From: an uncultured bacterium
GTDB taxonomy: Bacteria; Patescibacteriota; Minisyncoccia; Phycocordibacterales; DATDWN01
Length of the DNA: 64,000 bases
Assembly: GCA_903861205.1 (NCBI GenBank)
Contig: CAIOTC010000016.1
Span: forward strand, 10,243 to 74,242
Reading direction: 5' to 3'
Shown in pieces: positions 8,588-58,768 of the stretch (positions are counted from its first letter, which is position 1; each line of letters begins with the position of its first letter). Both the position numbers and the translations under genes were made by a program. The notes beneath the pieces were generated by a model, which searched no databases, was not told the DNA's origin, and saw only the letters and a program-made list of their open reading frames with translations.

Positions 8588-8744
8588 GATTGCAATGTAT
8601 TTTTCCTCGACCGACCGTCGTCTCCTGCGGACGACGGTCTCTGATCCTCGGCCTGAACTTGTCAATGAGCCCCGCCCAAAAAGCGGGGTCGTTGACAAGT
8701 CCAAGCTTCAGGCCTGCGGAGCCGAGGAAAAATACATTGCAATC
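8588..8744. mobile_element. MITE-like palindromic element with 22-bp perfect terminal inverted repeats
   Basis: gattgcaatgtatttttcctcg (8588-8609) is the exact reverse complement of cgaggaaaaatacattgcaatc (8723-8744). Internal GC hairpins gaccgtcgtc/gacgacggtc and ccccgc/gcgggg. The TIR shares tcgaggaaaat with the 17614/52781 element. Confidence 0.5.
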
Positions 8745-8778
8745 GAATCTTCCGTGGTGAATTTGCATTCGCATTCAA

Positions 8779-8816
8779 GGTCTGGCCTTGGGAAATTGGG
8801 CATTAAAGGCCAGACC
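8779..8816. repeat. 38-bp hairpin repeat ggtctggccttgggaaattgggcattaaaggccagacc (copy 1), overlapping the MGMT 3' end
   Basis: 11-bp stem GGTCTGGCCTT/AAGGCCAGACC. A second copy (36/38 identical) sits at 16849-16886 inside iscS. Here it encodes the last five codons QRSGL and the TAA stop of the MGMT gene. Confidence 0.8.
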
Positions 8817-9081
8817 TTTGGAGAATTTTGCACCCCTCCTCTTCCAGTATTTTTCTTTTCTTTATAGTTCCCTTATTGTACCCGCCCAACTTCCCATCCG
8901 ACCGAATCACTCGGTGACACGGAATGTCCGGATCATGATTTGTATGCAAGATATTCCCCACAGCTCTAGACGCCAGTGGACTACCAGCTTTTTCCGCCAC
9001 TTCTTTATACGTTAAAACTTTTCCCTTCGGGATCTTCCTCACAACTTCAAAAACCCTTTCTGTAAATGTTTTCTTTGTCAT
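8803..9081 (-). CDS. Methylated-DNA-protein-cysteine methyltransferase (O6-alkylguanine alkyltransferase) DNA-binding/active-site domain protein
   Basis: 92 aa with the PCHRV active-site motif (HTNHDPDIPCHRVIRSDGKLGGY) typical of Ogt/MGMT C-terminal domains. Confidence 0.7.
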   Translation of the reverse strand: MTKKTFTERVFEVVRKIPKGKVLTYKEVAEKAGSPLASRAVGNILHTNHDPDIPCHRVIRSDGKLGGYNKGTIKKRKILEEEGCKILQRSGL

Positions 9082-12122: not shown

Positions 12123-12134
12123 TTTATTGTATTT

Positions 12135-12198
12135 GTCATTCCCGCGAAGGCGGGAATCTAATTTTAAATATCTGGATTCCCGCCTTCGCGGGAATGAC
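12135..12198. repeat. Composite REP-like palindrome: gtcattcccgcgaaggcgggaatc plus its inverted copy gattcccgccttcgcgggaatgac
   Basis: Each unit is itself a hairpin (ATTCCCGC / GCGGGAAT). The same family is at 54118-54207 and 56129-56190. Confidence 0.8.
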
Positions 12199-12205
12199 AG
12201 AAACA

Positions 12206-12994
12206 CTACCTGCCCCACATTCTATTTGTTAATCTTTTCGCATCCATACCCGTGCTTTCTTCGCGAATATGCTTCCCCGTCAATTCCAAAAAGGCATCTT
12301 CCAACGTGGCTGATTTGGTACTTTCTTTCAATTCTGCCGGCGTGCCAGAAGCCACGATGACACCCTGATCGATGATCGCCACTCTGTCGGCATTTTTGTC
12401 CGCCTCCTCCATGTAATGCGTGGTGAAAAAAACAGTCAGGCCTTCTTTTTGGTTGAGATTTTTTATATAACTCCACATGTGATTGCGCGTTTGAGGATCG
12501 AGACCAAGTGTCGGCTCGTCGAGAAACAGCACTTTCGGATGATGCAAAAGTCCGCGGGCAATTTCCAAACGACGCTTCATTCCGCCGGAAAAATCTTTGA
12601 CCAAACTGTCCTTCCTATCCCACAAATCGACAAGTTCGAGCAACTCCTGTATGCGCGGTTTGTAAACAGATTTCGGCACGGCGTACATGACAGCGTGCAG
12701 TTCCATGTTTTCGTATGCAGTCATTTCGGTATCGACGGACGGATCCTGAAAGACAATTCCGAACGAATGTCTAGCCTCGTCCGGATATTTGATGACATCA
12801 AAACCATTGAGCACGACAGACCCAGATGTAGGCTCGAGAAGCGTGGTCAACATTTTTATGCTCGTTGTTTTGCCGGCGCCATTGGGTCCCAGAAAAGCAA
12901 AATTCTCGCCTTGTTTGACGGAAAAAGTGATGTTGTTGACGGCTGTAAAATCTCCAAACTTTTTGGTGGCATCCTTGACTTCTATGATATTCAT
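12206..12994 (-). CDS. ABC transporter ATP-binding protein
   Basis: Walker A GPNGAGKTT, signature LSGGMKRRLEIA, Walker B LFLDEPTLGLD. It is the partner of the downstream permease. Confidence 0.9.
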   Translation of the reverse strand: MNIIEVKDATKKFGDFTAVNNITFSVKQGENFAFLGPNGAGKTTSIKMLTTLLEPTSGSVVLNGFDVIKYPDEARHSFGIVFQDPSVDTEMTAYENMELHAVMYAVPKSVYKPRIQELLELVDLWDRKDSLVKDFSGGMKRRLEIARGLLHHPKVLFLDEPTLGLDPQTRNHMWSYIKNLNQKEGLTVFFTTHYMEEADKNADRVAIIDQGVIVASGTPAELKESTKSATLEDAFLELTGKHIREESTGMDAKRLTNRMWGR

Positions 12995-15893: not shown

Positions 15894-17168
15894 TCACATC
15901 ACAATTTTTTTCAAAGCTTTGACCAATACGTCAATGTCTTTTTTTGTCGTCGTTCGGCCGAGCGTGACGCGCAAACTGGAGGCGCTACAATTTTTGCGAC
16001 CAAGTTCGGAGATGACGTACGACGAAGAATTTTCTTTGCTCGTTTGACACGACGACGAATATGAAGTAGCGATGCCCTCCACATCCAAAGCGACGACGAT
16101 GTACTCACTGTCTGGCGCAGGCATATCAGCCATGGCTGAAAAACAAATATTGATGTTGTTTGGCAATCTGTCAGTCTGCGAGCCGTTCAGTTTGGCGTTC
16201 GGGAAAGCCTGGCAAATTTTTTCGATTCCGTAATCACGGATTTTTTGTAGTCGAGCCGATTCCGACTGGCGCAAATTTTCTGCCAGCTCTAGCGCTTTGG
16301 CCATGCCAACCATTCCCTCGACATTTTCCGTACCGCTGCGCAATCCGCCTTGCTGTCCACCGCCAAACATGATCGATTTTATTTTCACGCCCGTTCGCAC
16401 GTACAAAATTCCCACACCTCGCGGACCATGCATTTTGATACCATCGAGTGTCATCAAATCCACGCCAAGTTTTGCAACATCCAGCGGACAATACAAACCG
16501 GCTTGGCAGGCGTCAACATGAAAAATTGGAAATTTTTCATCAATTTTCAATTTACAATTTTTAATTTTTAATGAATTTTTTAATTTCTCAATTTTCCAAT
16601 TTTTAATTGCTTTTCCGATTTCTTTGATTGGCTGGATTGTGCCGATTTCGTTGTTGGCGTACATGACCGAAACCAAAACTGTGTTTTCTTTGATCGCAGC
16701 CAAAATATCTTTCGGCGAAACAAGTCCATCCTCCGAAACTCCAACGTAAGTTACTTCCCCACCGCGTCGTTCAATTTCCTTGCAAACTTCCAAAATAGCC
16801 GGATGCTCGATTCTGGTAGTAACAATGTGCGGAATGAATTTAGCACCCGAGGTCTGGCCTTGGGAAATTGGGCACCAAAGGCCAGACCTCTGGATCTCCT
16901 CAAACACACCCAAAAGCGCCAAGTTGTCCGACTCGGTTCCTCCGGAAGTGAAAATAATTTCGTTGGCTCGCGTGCCCAAAACCCTGGCGATTTTTTCTCG
17001 CGACTCCTTCATCACTTCCTTCGCCTTCATCCCCTCGCCATACAACGCTGACGGATTGGCAAAATTTTTCGCAGAATATTTCGCCATCGCCCCACTCACC
17101 TCTTTGGCCACAGGTGTAATCGACACATAATCCAAAAATATTCTTTTTTTGTTTTTTCGAGAAATCAT
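15894..17168 (-). CDS. iscS: Cysteine desulfurase (IscS/NifS family) with two in-frame repeat-derived insertions
   Basis: TSGGTESDN, HVDACQAG, HKMHGPRGVGILYV, GGGQQGGLRSGTENV. Best start is ATG at 17168 (MISRKNKKRIFLDY); the track extends from a TTG at 17291. Insert 1 (QRSGLWCPISQGQTSGA) is encoded by the 16849-16886 hairpin repeat. Insert 2 (NWKIEKLKNSLKIKNCKLKIDEK) is encoded by AT-rich repeat 16521-16616. Confidence 0.85.
   Translation of the reverse strand: MISRKNKKRIFLDYVSITPVAKEVSGAMAKYSAKNFANPSALYGEGMKAKEVMKESREKIARVLGTRANEIIFTSGGTESDNLALLGVFEEIQRSGLWCPISQGQTSGAKFIPHIVTTRIEHPAILEVCKEIERRGGEVTYVGVSEDGLVSPKDILAAIKENTVLVSVMYANNEIGTIQPIKEIGKAIKNWKIEKLKNSLKIKNCKLKIDEKFPIFHVDACQAGLYCPLDVAKLGVDLMTLDGIKMHGPRGVGILYVRTGVKIKSIMFGGGQQGGLRSGTENVEGMVGMAKALELAENLRQSESARLQKIRDYGIEKICQAFPNAKLNGSQTDRLPNNINICFSAMADMPAPDSEYIVVALDVEGIATSYSSSCQTSKENSSSYVISELGRKNCSASSLRVTLGRTTTKKDIDVLVKALKKIVM
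16849..16886. repeat. Hairpin repeat ggtctggccttgggaaattgggcaccaaaggccagacc (copy 2), in-frame inside iscS
   Basis: Differs from copy 1 only at cattaaagg versus caccaaagg. Those two changes remove the TAA that terminates the MGMT gene in copy 1. Confidence 0.8.
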
Positions 17169-17199
17169 TATGTCAATAGAATAACATGAAAAATGAGAC

Positions 17200-17228
17200 T
17201 TGACAAAAAATTGGTGGTGGGTAATATA
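17200..17228 (+). promoter_or_regulatory. Sigma70-type promoter for ORF 17245 (TTGACA, 17-nt spacer, AATATA), with GGAGG RBS at 17235-17239
   Basis: cTTGACAaaaaattggtggtgggtAATATAaaaatcGGAGGtaaatATG. Confidence 0.6.
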
Positions 17229-17244
17229 AAAATCGGAGGTAAAT

Positions 17245-17541
17245 ATGTCGACAAAAAACGTTCCATTGATAATGACGGACGAAATTGCCAAGGCACTTTA
17301 CAACGAACTTTCCATGTTTGGTCGTGTTCAAGTAACCGATGAGTTGGCATTTGTAGCTGCGAGATGGCAGAAAAACCGAATTATTCAAGAGCTAAAGGTT
17401 TTTTTAGCTCACCACCAAAAAAACTTGGATGAGTTGAATAGAAACCCAAGACCTCAGCTCGCGACAACAACGACCTATATAAAAGGAATTACTGAAGGAA
17501 AAATTGAAACGTTAAAATCTTTGATCGCTATCTTGGAATAA
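17245..17541 (+). CDS. Hypothetical protein (98 aa)
   Basis: Clean ORF with a consensus promoter and RBS and a downstream terminator. No motif recognised. Confidence 0.5.
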   Translation: MSTKNVPLIMTDEIAKALYNELSMFGRVQVTDELAFVAARWQKNRIIQELKVFLAHHQKNLDELNRNPRPQLATTTTYIKGITEGKIETLKSLIAILE

Positions 17542-18307: not shown

Positions 18308-18420
18308 TTTTCAAGTAACAATTTTCAATTTCCAATAAATTTTTCAATGTCACAATGTTTCAATTGAAGAATTGTTTTATTGCTTCATTCATTGGAAATT
18401 GGAAATTGGAAATTTTTTAA
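18301..18420. repeat. AT-rich palindromic intergenic repeat (same family as 1121-1254)
   Basis: Shares the exact 24-mer caatttccaataaatttttcaatg (18326-18349) and inverted cattggaaattggaaattggaaat. Confidence 0.6.
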
Positions 18421-37804: not shown

Positions 37805-38274
37805 AAATCAACAACACATTCAAACTCATCATTTCGCTTATTATCCCGCAGTTGGCAGGAGGACTGGGTAGCTACTTTACCATCGGTTCGGTGAAAGATT
37901 GGTATCCGGTGCTGGAGAAGCCCGTTCTCAATCCACCGGCATGGATATTCGGACCGGTTTGGACGACGTTGTTTCTTTTGATGGGCTATGCACTTTATCT
38001 TGTCTGGAAGGACGAGAGTGGAAAAAGCAAAGGCCTGGCCTATTGGGCTTTTGGAATTCAAATGGTTTTAAACGCGCTATGGTCGATCATCTTTTTCGGC
38101 CTGCATAGCCCGGGCGGAGCACTTTTTGAGATGATTTTTCTTTGGCTAGCCATTCTCGCCACGATCATCGCTTTTGCTAAAATATCAAAACCGGCCGCAT
38201 GGCTCCTCGTGCCCTATATTCTCTGGGTCAGCTTTGCCGGGTATCTTAACTACGCCATCTGGGCATTAAATTAA
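37801..38274 (+). CDS. tspO: TspO/MBR family tryptophan-rich sensory protein
   Basis: Five TM helices with Trp/Pro-rich loops (NPPAWIFGPVWTTLF...AYWAFGIQMVLNALWSIIFF). ATGA overlap with the upstream gene. Confidence 0.75.
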   Translation: MKINNTFKLIISLIIPQLAGGLGSYFTIGSVKDWYPVLEKPVLNPPAWIFGPVWTTLFLLMGYALYLVWKDESGKSKGLAYWAFGIQMVLNALWSIIFFGLHSPGGALFEMIFLWLAILATIIAFAKISKPAAWLLVPYILWVSFAGYLNYAIWALN

Positions 38275-47785: not shown

Positions 47786-47848
47786 GACTATATTATACCA
47801 CCCAATTTCCTAATTCAAAAATTTTCTGTTGAAAAGTTTAAATACGAA

Positions 47849-47892
47849 GGACTGCCCTTTGTATTTTTGGGTAATTGCTACAAAGGGCAGTC
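47849..47892. repeat. REP-like hairpin upstream of the RAYT gene (ggactgccctttgta ... tacaaagggcagtc)
   Basis: Perfect 15/14-bp inverted arms with a 15-bp loop. The unit tacaaagggcagtc recurs at 48579. Confidence 0.7.
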
Positions 47893-47910
47893 TTTTGTAT
47901 AATTATTGGT

Positions 47911-48567
47911 ATGAATAACAGAGACTACAAAGAATTTGCTTCCGGAGGTGTTTATCACATTTTTAACCGAGGTAATAATAAGGAAAACATTTTTCTTAAT
48001 GAAAATGATTATGGAGCCTTTCTTTTTAGATTAGCAATCTCTTTGGGTTTCGATATGAACGATCTTAAAAATTATAAGCTGATGTATTTTCCCTACTCAC
48101 GGATGGCAATTTCTGAAACTAGCAAAAACAATTTTAAGTTACATTCTTTTTGTCTCATGCCAAACCATTTTCACTTGGTTATCGAGCAATGTAAGGACGT
48201 GCCCGTATCAAAGCTAATTTCAAAAACTTGCACAAGTTATTCGATGTATTTTAATAAAAAATACACCAGAGTTGGGCACTTATTTCAAGATCGATTCAAA
48301 GCAGTTTTAATAGATAACAACCCCCAACTAATGTGGACATCATCATACATTCACATGAACCCGGTCAAAGACGGATTAGTAAAATCACCCGAAGATTATG
48401 TTTGGAGTAGTTACAGAGACTACACTGAAGAAAGAAATTTACCTATTGTGTCAAAAGAATTTTTACTGGAATTATTTGGTGGTGAAAAATTTTTAAAAAA
48501 AGAAACTTTGGCTTATTTTTCCAAAGAAAACTCTGCTATGATTGATATTCTTGATGATGATAATTAG
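47911..48567 (+). CDS. REP-associated tyrosine transposase (RAYT; IS200-like Y1 HUH transposase)
   Basis: HUH motif FCLMPNHFHLVIE and catalytic Tyr region SSYIHMNPVKDGLV...YVWSSYRDY. Flanked on both sides by REP-like hairpins. Confidence 0.75.
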   Translation: MNNRDYKEFASGGVYHIFNRGNNKENIFLNENDYGAFLFRLAISLGFDMNDLKNYKLMYFPYSRMAISETSKNNFKLHSFCLMPNHFHLVIEQCKDVPVSKLISKTCTSYSMYFNKKYTRVGHLFQDRFKAVLIDNNPQLMWTSSYIHMNPVKDGLVKSPEDYVWSSYRDYTEERNLPIVSKEFLLELFGGEKFLKKETLAYFSKENSAMIDILDDDN

Positions 48568-48578
48568 AAAACCATAAT

Positions 48579-48618
48579 TACAAAGGGCAGTCCTTTGTAA
48601 CTTTGTAACCTTTGTACA
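48579..48618. repeat. REP-like hairpins downstream of the RAYT gene (tacaaagggcagtcctttgta, then repeated ctttgta units)
   Basis: acaaagg-gcagtc-cctttgt palindrome sharing the unit with 47879-47892. Confidence 0.65.
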
Positions 48619-53319: not shown

Positions 53320-53410
53320 AATTTAGAATTTTTAATTTAGAATTTAAAATAAATTTAAAATGATTAAATTTAAAAATTATAAATTCTAAATTTATTTTAA
53401 ATTATAAATT
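53320..53410. repeat. AT-rich tandem/palindromic repeat (aatttagaat / attctaaatt units)
   Basis: Nearly palindromic across its centre. Related tracts at 54067-54105 and 58669-58768. Confidence 0.5.
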
Positions 53411-54070
53411 CTAAATTTGTTGCAAAACCGTCACCTCCCCTTCCTTGCCCTCCAAATCTTTCTTTTTGATCGTCAATTTGTCCAGCGATTCTGCTTTTTC
53501 CTCGCCGGCTTCTTTTAGGAATTTTTTCAGCGCGTCCTTTTCGCCGACTTCACCGTAATGGCTGGGAATAATCAGTTTCGGTTCAAATTGCAGAGCCAAC
53601 TTGTGCGCCACGGCCGGTGACAAAACTCCGTCGCCTCCGATCGGCACGAACAAAATATCCACGCCGTCGATTGCCTCCACCACATTAGCCGGAATTTTTT
53701 CATCGCCGAGCGCGCCAAAAAAACAGAGGGTAATGCCTTCCAGATTTATCGTATATATAGTATTGATTCGCTCCTCGCCTCCGTAGGACGATTTGGACAA
53801 AAAGCCTTTGATAAAAACTCCGCGCACTTCGTATTCGCCGGGACCGTTTATGATGAAGGATTCTTTTTCTCCGCGAGATGTCACGTCCGTGCCGTTGTGT
53901 TCAGGGCTGTTCAAAAGCGAAACGAGCGTAATGTCACTGCCAAACCGCGTGCTCTTGACCGGCGAATCTTTGGAAATCGGATTAACCGCCAAAGTGGTGT
54001 CGCCGAATGTAACCTTAAAAAAGTCTGCGCCGTGGTAAGTGATGATCATAATGTGCTTATTATATAGCAC
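53411..54070 (-). CDS. MBL-fold metallo-hydrolase (UPF0173/YtkL-like)
   Basis: MIITYHGADFFKV start region, then conserved His/Asp blocks ILFVPIGGDGVLSP...IIPSHYGEVG. Confidence 0.6.
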   Translation of the reverse strand: MLYNKHIMIITYHGADFFKVTFGDTTLAVNPISKDSPVKSTRFGSDITLVSLLNSPEHNGTDVTSRGEKESFIINGPGEYEVRGVFIKGFLSKSSYGGEERINTIYTINLEGITLCFFGALGDEKIPANVVEAIDGVDILFVPIGGDGVLSPAVAHKLALQFEPKLIIPSHYGEVGEKDALKKFLKEAGEEKAESLDKLTIKKKDLEGKEGEVTVLQQI

Positions 54071-54117: not shown

Positions 54118-54207
54118 GTCATTCCCGCATAACTTTCTGTCATTCCCGCGAAAGCGGGAATCCAGACCCTGTTCAATCACCCAGATTTCCGCCTACGCGG
54201 GAATGAC
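54118..54207. repeat. REP-like gtcattcccgcg family, locus 2 (one partial plus an inverted pair of units)
   Basis: gtcattcccgcgaaagcgggaatc (54139-54162) and gatttccgcctacgcgggaatgac (54184-54207). Confidence 0.75.
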
Positions 54208-56072: not shown

Positions 56073-56128
56073 CGCAAGGACTGTCCATGCGAGTTTGAAA
56101 TTTTTCCGTCACTAGAATATTAATTCAT

Positions 56129-56190
56129 GTCATCCCCGCGAATACGGGGATCCAGTCCAAACTCTAGATTCCCGCATTCGCGGGAATGAC
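56129..56190. repeat. REP-like gtcattcccgcg family, locus 3
   Basis: gtcatccccgcgaatacggggatc (56129-56152) and gattcccgcattcgcgggaatgac (56167-56190). Confidence 0.75.
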
Positions 56191-56219
56191 AAAATCGCGC
56201 AAGTGGCTCGCCGAAATTT

Positions 56220-58050: not shown

Positions 58051-58668
58051 ATGAATGACGAACAAATCATTGAACCTATTGCACAAAACGAGAAAAAACC
58101 AAGTGGACTGATGAGCTTGCTAAAGGAAGTTCTGATTTTTGCAGTCATCGCTTTTTGTATCATCCTACCCTTCCGCGCTTTTGTAGCCGAGCCTTACATC
58201 GTCTCCGGCGCTTCAATGGATCCGACGTTCGCTACCGGCCACTATCTCATTGTGGACAAAATTTCGCATGAGCTAGGCGCACAACTGCAGAGAAATTCCG
58301 TCGTTATTTTTCAATTTCCAAAAAGCGCCAATATTCCTTCCGAAGACGGCAAAAACCTGATAAAACGCGTTATCGGCCTGCCCGGCGACACCGTAATCGA
58401 GACCGGAAACACCGTCACCATCAAAAACGCGTCAAATCCCGACGGCTTCGTTTTGGACCAATCATACGTCACTCACCCGCTGCCGGGATCTTTTGCCATC
58501 ACACTGAAACCGGGCGAATATTTTGTCATGGGCGACAATCGCGCCGAAAGTTTTGACTCGCGAAGCTGGGGAGTTTTGCCATCAAGCGATGTTATCGGAC
58601 GGCCGATTCTGCGACTATGGCCGCTTTCGGAAATAGGAGTTTTGCCGGGACAGGACAATACAAAATAA
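58051..58668 (+). CDS. lepB: Signal peptidase I
   Basis: SGASMDPTF (Ser box), KRVIGLPGD, GDNRAESFDSR. The track ORF from TTG 57766 reads through the inverted repeat, so the start was trimmed to ATG 58051. Confidence 0.85.
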   Translation: MNDEQIIEPIAQNEKKPSGLMSLLKEVLIFAVIAFCIILPFRAFVAEPYIVSGASMDPTFATGHYLIVDKISHELGAQLQRNSVVIFQFPKSANIPSEDGKNLIKRVIGLPGDTVIETGNTVTIKNASNPDGFVLDQSYVTHPLPGSFAITLKPGEYFVMGDNRAESFDSRSWGVLPSSDVIGRPILRLWPLSEIGVLPGQDNTK

Positions 58669-58768
58669 TTTTTAATTTTTAATTTAAAATTTTTAATGAA
58701 TTTTCAATGTCAAATTTTTAAATTCAATAAAAATTCTAAATTTTAAATTTTAAATTTTTATATTTACA

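Follow-up and report, generated by a model that had tools for sequence, protein, structure and literature searches.

Nearly all work on repetitive extragenic palindromic (REP) sequences, the inverted REP doublets known as REPINs and the REP-associated tyrosine transposases (RAYTs) has been done in Proteobacteria, in which the repeats lie outside genes and their cellular role is debated. The published picture is that of an apparently single-copy RAYT gene, in a syntenic position and flanked by its own repeats (PMC5581495, PMC3733652), and most described REP families are marked by a GTAG (or CGTC) tag (PMC3733652). In-frame intragenic REPs with this tag occur in Opitutus terrae, Thioalkalivibrio and Rickettsia conorii, often in genes for DNA synthesis and repair (Di Nocera et al. 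2013, PMC3733652), and the Rickettsia palindromic elements (RPEs) are the textbook case of in-frame palindromic insertions (PMC10969869). As a phenomenon, in-frame intragenic palindromic repeats are not new. Here, we describe a palindromic hairpin element that is present twice in a 64-kb stretch of DNA from an uncultured member of the Patescibacteria (contig CAIOTC010000016.1; the whole stretch is termed “the window”), once inside iscS, which encodes a cysteine desulfurase, and once at the end of an MGMT-family gene.

The element is probably a REPIN-like hairpin belonging to a RAYT-associated family of Patescibacteria, tolerated as a surface loop of IscS and as a C-terminal extension with stop codon of the MGMT-family protein. 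The family is dispersed through genomes of Patescibacteria (candidate phyla radiation [CPR]), and the novelty lies in the lineage, in the sequence family and in its scale. The 13-mers were found in no paper, and a literature search found no description of palindromic insertions in coding sequence of CPR.

Two hairpin copies in iscS and at the MGMT gene end

The 38-mer GGTCTGGCCTTGGGAAATTGGGCA[TT/CC]AAAGGCCAGACC occurs exactly twice in the window, at 8779 to 8816 and 16851 to 16888 (0.00 expected from 100 shuffles). A preliminary description of this DNA recognized the second copy and its position in iscS correctly but placed it 2 bases off, at 16849 to 16886. The copies are identical at 36 of 38 core bases and differ solely in the loop, where TT or CC is read on the coding minus strand as TAA in the MGMT copy and TGG in the iscS copy; the two substitutions held to remove the stop codon from iscS thus do so in its reading frame. 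Perfect palindromes span 8777 to 8818 (copy 1; arms AAGGTCTGGCCTT at 8777 to 8789 and AAGGCCAGACCTT at 8806 to 8818) and 16849 to 16890 (copy 2; arms GAGGTCTGGCCTT at 16849 to 16861 and AAGGCCAGACCTC at 16878 to 16890, with a 16-nt loop). Homology to an intergenic relative in L031 (221 to 270; L and P numbers are our labels for loci or contigs and for orthologous proteins, respectively) suggests that the elements extend over approximately 8771 to 8820 and 16843 to 16892. Each copy can form a stem-loop with a 13-bp stem, with predicted RNA folding energies of −21.8 and −31.8 kcal/mol (z about −4.3 and −4.9). No decayed copies (up to 3 arm mismatches) were found in the 64 kb, and the core AGG-N-CTG/CAG-N-CCT has seven matches there: the four arms of the two copies, the arms flanking the RAYT-like gene described below, and one orphan. 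The orphan arm-like motif, AGGCCTGGCCT at 38031 to 38041, is the only other AGG-N-CTG-N-CCT match in the window. Rfam models identified only tRNAs in the window, and the element itself gave nothing beyond sub-threshold matches to generic hairpins.

Copy 2 lies within an intact IscS/NifS family cysteine desulfurase gene (15894 to 17168, minus strand; 424 amino acids from the ATG, MISRKNKK...). The open reading frame (ORF; 15894 to 17291) reads ...EEIQRSGLWCPISQGQTSGAKFIPHIVTT through the element, whose minus strand reads QRSGLWCPISQGQTSGA, and SGLWCPISQGQTSGAK would be the tryptic peptide diagnostic of its translation. The IscS of known structure that comes closest, 9wep (E = 5.8e-75), aligns over the full length with a 16-residue gap exactly at the insert. 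The segment at this site comprises 32 residues, versus 18 to 19 in 97 of 120 IscS orthologues (55 to 68% identical by BLASTP and, where named, from Paceibacterota, Parcubacteria or Zambryskibacteria), among them P0002, the nearest relative. At the insert, the window protein exceeds the short-form orthologues by 13 residues, and the extra loop amounts to 13 to 16 residues, which agrees with the initial proposal of an in-frame insertion relative to canonical IscS. Long loops do exist in other orthologues, an observation that the preliminary description would have taken against an insertion had those loops lacked the repeat, but the ones checked at the DNA level are also hairpins.

The gene is not a pseudogene: one frame is open throughout, H103, D208, Q211, K234 and C363 are retained as invariant residues, with catalytic and pyridoxal phosphate-binding residues conserved, and the AlphaFold model (pLDDT of 83.5) has the IscS fold, with TM scores of 0.80 to 0.89 to solved structures. 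In this model, the insert forms a coil (residues 87 to 102) between helix 66-86 and strand 103-107, with pLDDT of <50 at residues 89 to 96, consistent with a surface loop, the placement that the preliminary description had raised. The insert is presumably translated and harmless. No record of the exact IscS protein was found on look-up.

A second in-frame insert, of ~19 to 21 residues (IEKLKNSLKIKNCKLKIDEKF), is present in the same gene (window positions 16515 to 16590) and consists of an AT-rich palindromic repeat with a period of ~7 nt. Repeats of the same kind are intergenic at 1122 to 1240, 18319 to 18408, 53320 to 53417 and 58664 to 58761, and variable inserts are also found at this second site in other iscS orthologues.

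Copy 1 lies exactly at the end of the MGMT-family gene (PF01035; 8803 to 9081, minus strand; 92 amino acids), upstream of the rpoB promoter region. The ORF ends ...KILQRSGL*, with the TAA inside the hairpin loop. Fifty-seven of 120 MGMT orthologues stop 33 residues after PCHRV (…EGxKI*), and the window protein continues to 39, so that copy 1 adds six codons (LQRSGL) and a new TAA to the gene; the earlier claim that it encodes the terminal QRSGL and the stop codon of the alkyltransferase gene is correct. The hairpin is not an assembly artefact, as six independent assemblies carry an identical MGMT 3′ end.

A 150-nt nested inverted repeat (8590 to 8742; predicted RNA folding energy of −99.9 kcal/mol) is located just downstream of copy 1, with 18-bp perfect termini (GCAATGTATTTTTCCTCG / CGAGGAAAAATACATTGC) enclosing two hairpins, and many assemblies break there. 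A strain-level contig (L139) carries a different inner hairpin ~190 nt downstream of the MGMT stop codon and has dnaB in place of rpoB downstream.

A hairpin family and its residence in coding sequence

A metagenome scan in which only the stem was specified (AGGTCNGNCCTT, 4 to 24 nt, AAGGNCNGACCT) returned at least 120 loci, most of them on contigs from Rifle and Hainich groundwater, with G+C of 0.28 to 0.57. Family statistics cover 128 copies among the matches listed, and all 128 have the same layout: two inverted 13-bp arms of the form AAGG-N5-CCTT, mostly AAGGTCNGACCTT, separated by a spacer of 4 to 24 nt. The dominant arm is itself a 13-bp palindrome (AAGGTC-N-GACCTT). The inverted doublet is the arrangement of a REPIN, and single arms and arrays of arms also occur. 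Elements measure 29 to 50 bp across the family, and relatives in L031, L005 and L144 suggest a full element of ~52 to 56 nt, (A)TYCAAAGG…CCTYGGGTGCTAAA. The central arm pair is complementary in 111 of the 128 copies, the four possible base pairs occurring at roughly equal frequency, and a second free pair is complementary in 115 (A-T in 94 and G-C, the type found in the window, in 13); this covariation indicates that the hairpin itself is under constraint. Spacers are diverse and very variable in length, with recurring types that include RRGAATTYAAA and GGGAAT….

Several contigs contain two or three copies, and L031 contains arrays of single arms. These tandem arrays (L031, 121 to 270 and 1210 to 1380) have a period of 34 to 40 nt (GAGCCCAAGGTCTGGCCTTTCTGTATTGCATCGT…), flank a response-regulator gene pair and resemble the REP clusters termed bacterial interspersed mosaic elements. 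A scan of representative genomes (GGTCTGGCCTT..AAGGCCAGACC) returned seven loci, of which only L005 (Paceibacterota; intergenic, downstream of prfA) is clearly related; the matches in Rhodococcus and other representative genomes are unrelated longer hairpins and were rejected as family members. Viral contigs yielded no family matches.

Copies of the family frequently reside in coding sequence. Open frames of ≥450 nt contain 47% of copies, versus 74% of random positions in the same contigs, and intergenic DNA is therefore enriched approximately 2-fold. Among the copies listed, 57 are in ORFs of ≥600 nt, distributed over the three codon phases as 31, 19 and 7, and give rise to peptides such as RSDLKNSKRSDL, QGQTL…QGLTF and KVRP…. 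Eight of the host ORFs were named by NCBIfam, as LepA, TopA, PurL, PheT, ArgS, LigA (two contigs) and PriA. In one LigA aligned with Escherichia coli LigA (2owo), two copies correspond to exact 12-residue gaps and a third to a shorter gap. Insertion sites are shared between two ligA genes and between two lepA genes. With at least 57 copies in frame in long ORFs, housekeeping genes included, the likeness to RPEs drawn in the preliminary description is apt as regards behavior.

The iscS loop that is occupied in the window is filled in at least five lineages that have insert-free close relatives. A homologous hairpin is present at the same site in the orthologue DNA of L008, L011 and L012 (CAAAGGTCYGACCTT…AATTCC…AAGGTCRRACCTTGGGG), and the GGCC arm variant of the window recurs in L144 iscS. 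In a neighbor-joining tree of the 120 orthologues, from which the loop was excluded, the five element-bearing iscS genes are scattered, each beside an element-free sister. Close pairs of filled and empty genes are L008/L136 (93.2% nucleotide identity) and L011/L137 (90.3%). The 18-codon loops of L008 and L011 share a layout, and the L012 loop is equally long; part of the apparently shared “flank” would be explained if the element is really ~52 to 56 nt. Of the informative sites outside the loop, 164 favor the species grouping and only 2 a grouping of filled genes with filled genes, which indicates that there is no co-conversion tract.

In L144 (10180 to 10260; iscS of P0090), the family hairpin sits inside a longer palindrome of ~78 nt (−49.7 kcal/mol predicted) that adds 18 residues. 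An unrelated insert at the same loop in L015 (2219 to 3511; P0105) consists of two perfect hairpins with 12- and 10-bp stems, and the peptide QLGHRMSKL recurs at the loop in two distant orthologues (P0034 and P0109). Several kinds of palindromic insertion seem to accumulate in the iscS loop.

A second hairpin-repeat family (TGTCATTCCCGCGAAGGCGGGAATC) occurs in the window as inverted doublets at 12125 to 12208, 56128 to 56191 and 54143 to 54160. One such doublet lies in the short gap between ABC transporter ATPase and permease genes and artificially extends the permease ORF.

RAYT-like genes and the probable spread of the element

The window contains a gene for a RAYT-like Y1 (HUH) transposase (47911 to 48567, plus strand; 218 amino acids, HUH motif HFH plus YIHMNPVKDGLV), which is the candidate mobilizing enzyme. 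A hairpin doublet with the AAGG-N5-CCTT architecture (TACGAAGGACTGCCCTTTGTA, 15 nt, TACAAAGGGCAGTCTTTTGTA; 47843 to 47899) is located just upstream, and a single arm (TACAAAGGGCAGTCCTTTGTA; 48579 to 48599) is found 12 nt downstream of the stop codon. The spacer of the doublet resembles that of the dispersed copies (TTGGGTAATTG versus TTGGGAAATTG). The flanking arms (AAGGACTGCCCTT / AAGGGCAGTCCTT) match the iscS and MGMT copies at 16 of 21 bases and in the spacer core TTGGGWAATTG, and these similarities are suggestive of a cognate relation between the flanks of the RAYT-like gene and the two dispersed copies.

When the Y1_Tnp gene beside iscS in L008 was used as a tblastn query against the window and the collected loci, homologues were found in the window (47911 to 48567) and in six element-bearing loci. 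Their sole NCBIfam match is the REP-associated tyrosine transposase model NF047646 (E = 7e-18 for the window protein; the others range from 1e-13 to 4e-9). The window protein passes the Pfam Y1_Tnp threshold (44.1 versus 23), and its only match in PDB is the E. coli TnpArep structure 4er8 (E = 0.0018). In L032 and L123, the RAYT-like gene has AAGGTCNGACCTT hairpins on both sides, and in L092 it has them on the one side present in the contig, so at the level of the family the RAYT gene is flanked by cognate repeats. In L069 and the window, AAGG-N5-CCTT arms are 12 to 45 nt from both ends of the RAYT-like gene; in L112 and L094, the flanks are other palindromes. Overall, five of the eight Y1 homologues have AAGG-N5-CCTT arms within ~45 nt of the gene ends, in four cases on both sides (chance ~0.002 per side). 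No other transposase was seen recurrently. A UbiE-type methyltransferase gene adjoins the RAYT-like gene in both the window and L008, which fits the pattern of single-copy, vertically inherited RAYTs (PMC5581495). In L008 (378 to 470 and 1 to 377), a long perfect hairpin precedes the RAYT-like gene and has GTAG, the classical REP tag, immediately 5′ of the stem (GTAGCTGTCAAGTCGCGTTCTTGACAT…).

The element, two inverted 13-bp REP-like arms around a 16-nt spacer, belongs to a family spread most likely by a RAYT-type Y1 HUH transposase that recognizes the folded hairpin in single-stranded DNA, and an enzyme of this kind is encoded in the window, bordered by related hairpins. One copy may have inserted into the IscS loop between helix and strand and survived there because its length keeps the frame, it contains no stop codon (TGG versus TAA) and its peptide would form a flexible surface loop. 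The other may have inserted at the end of the MGMT gene, displacing the original stop codon and supplying LQRSGL and a TAA from its own loop. We infer both the movement of the element by a RAYT and the direction of the change between TAA and TGG.

Several observations weigh against this account. None of the RAYT-like proteins reaches the curated NCBIfam cut-off (the window protein scores 64.9 against 80 bits), and the arms flanking the window RAYT-like gene differ from those in iscS and MGMT at 2 of 13 core bases. The syntenic RAYT-like gene of L008 has an unrelated hairpin at its flank, though a decayed copy of the family is present in L008 iscS. Neither a GTAG nor a CGTC tag adjoins the stems; the flanks of the 128 copies show only an A...T extension of the stem, and GTAG stands beside one copy (L123). 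Just two dispersed copies are present across 64 kb. The loop variant of the window was translated in no other protein found in a collection of 5.8 billion proteins: a search with peptides from all six frames of the window element, which is insensitive for short peptides, gave 6 candidates with shared words, none of which scored, indicating that this variant is not widely translated elsewhere. The closest filled and empty iscS genes are 90 to 93% identical, and in both pairs an ancestral 8-codon loop (KHKTKIFK or KCITKNFI) has been replaced by the 18-codon loop and not simply interrupted. Simple transposition does not predict such replacement, nor does it account for the repeated appearance of loops of one length at this site.

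These replaced loops bear on how specific the insertion is. It is conceivable, but unlikely, that the element seeks its sites, the surface loops of iscS, ligA and lepA being invaded repeatedly and independently across CPR and the old loop being overwritten by a fixed-length cassette, either through sequence-specific insertion by the RAYT or through homing-like short-patch conversion. Were this so, a RAYT/REPIN system would, in minimal genomes, routinely supply essential proteins with new peptide loops. A very improbable alternative is that the filled iscS loop spreads in a homing-like manner by natural transformation and very short-patch gene conversion, the hairpin possibly serving as an uptake or recombination signal. 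A dependence on DNA uptake is generally assumed for CPR bacteria, and the scattered positions of the five filled genes beside element-free sisters, the exact 18 codons of the filled loops in L008, L011 and L012 in place of the 8-codon ancestral loop, and the insertion sites common to two ligA and two lepA genes would all fit such spread. The informative sites around the loop, 164 against 2, contradict it, and with four in 64 kb the arms are far sparser than uptake sequences; relative to homologues, moreover, the copies are insertions, not motifs arising by point mutation. Origin of each hairpin locally, by chance or by template-switch (quasi-palindrome) mutation, without any repeat family, is effectively refuted. 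The left-arm codons RSGL do resemble ancestral residues in some orthologues (RRSGV and KNSGL) and unrelated perfect hairpins occupy the same loop in others, but a near-identical 38-mer with the same 16-nt loop sequence lies 8 kb away in an unrelated gene, where none is expected, and hundreds of related copies elsewhere share flanks.

The REPIN-like reading has also to be weighed against spread without a RAYT and against a function for the host. A selfish palindrome resembling an RPE or a MITE (a miniature transposable element with inverted repeats) might have been dispersed by an unidentified transposase or by hairpin insertion linked to replication, its proximity to RAYT genes reflecting preferred landing or shared accumulation in intergenic DNA; this is a minority possibility. 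It would accommodate the in-frame insertions in unrelated housekeeping genes, as in RPEs (PMC10969869), the untagged stems and the different hairpin beside the RAYT-like gene of L008, and REPs are known targets of other insertion sequences (PMC3733652). The arms could count as the terminal repeats of a DDE-transposase-derived MITE. Opposed to it are the frequency with which arms border the Y1 homologues, the absence of any other recurrent transposase and the junctions, which show no consistent target-site motif or duplication, including none in the two filled/empty iscS pairs, where the site is rearranged. A structure kept by selection for the host, such as a terminator, an mRNA stability or processing hairpin or a site for a dimeric protein that recognizes the 13-bp arms, is quite improbable. 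Covariation is maintained at orthologous sites (e.g., central pairs A-T, C-G and G-C at the ligA “FPP” site), intergenic positions are enriched, copy 1 is placed exactly at a gene end ahead of the rpoB promoter region and other bacteria have put REPs to use in termination and in the control of translation (PMC5581495). However, about half of the copies are in coding sequence, in any of three phases, the element is patchy in iscS, being absent from relatives with 90 to 93% nucleotide identity, and loops and spacer lengths are very variable. In particular, copy 1 is not supported as an intrinsic terminator, as its loop is 16 nt, it is followed by UUGAAUGCG without a U-tract and it was not called by a terminator scan.

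Significance and relation to known systems

If correctly interpreted, these hairpins provide a natural experiment in which selfish elements reshape proteins in very small genomes, with approximately half of the copies inside long ORFs and apparently translated. The family has a simple searchable signature (AAGG-N5-CCTT doublets and the characteristic peptides) and a candidate enzyme. Such repeats give rise to spurious ORFs, lengthen others and change gene ends, as in MGMT, and probably break metagenome assemblies. Should the recurrent occupation of the iscS loop reflect target specificity, it would be a novelty among elements of this class.

Short conserved motifs, often in inverted pairs at gene ends and also within coding regions for genome maintenance, are shared with the DNA uptake sequences of Neisseria and the uptake signal sequences of Pasteurellaceae. 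Uptake sequences, however, occur at ~1 per kb and arise by point mutation and recombination, whereas the window contains four arms of two dispersed copies in 64 kb and the copies are paired hairpin units inserted relative to homologues, as 12-residue insertions in LigA illustrate.

The element also resembles RPE-1 to RPE-10, being palindromic, also intergenic and inserted in frame in unrelated housekeeping genes (iscS, ligA with its 12-residue gaps and other hosts) with surface-compatible peptides. RPEs are ~100 to 150 bp and restricted to Rickettsia (PMC10969869), whereas the elements described here are 29 to 50 bp, occur in genes whose homologues are named as Paceibacterota or Parcubacteria and have a candidate mobilizing enzyme. 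There is no evident sequence relation, the two being set apart without comparison to RPE consensus sequences.

REP and REPIN repeats are closer known relatives than RPEs because RAYT-like genes are flanked by hairpins of the family. As in the REP-TnpArep system of E. coli and the REPINs of Pseudomonas, short palindromic stem-loops form longer hairpins as inverted doublets, the repeats are both dispersed and clustered (L031), an apparently single-copy Y1 HUH transposase-like gene is flanked by repeats, and the hairpin rather than base identity is conserved. Differences are that the arms lack the GTAG/CGTC tag and are themselves 13-bp palindromes, that the RAYT-like proteins are distant and below the curated cut-off, and that the host lineage is Patescibacteria. 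The repeats are also neither predominantly extragenic nor, within the window, over-represented in the manner of REPs, with 47% of copies in frames of ≥450 nt, in frame, and only two dispersed copies in the window.

In the intragenic REPs of Di Nocera et al., monomers or dimers lie in frame in known genes of other phyla and add ~10 to 30 residues that are presumed to be tolerated (PMC3733652), and the present element is accordingly less novel than was first assumed. It differs from them in belonging to another, untagged sequence family in another phylum, and in filling the same iscS loop in several lineages whose sisters have the loop empty.

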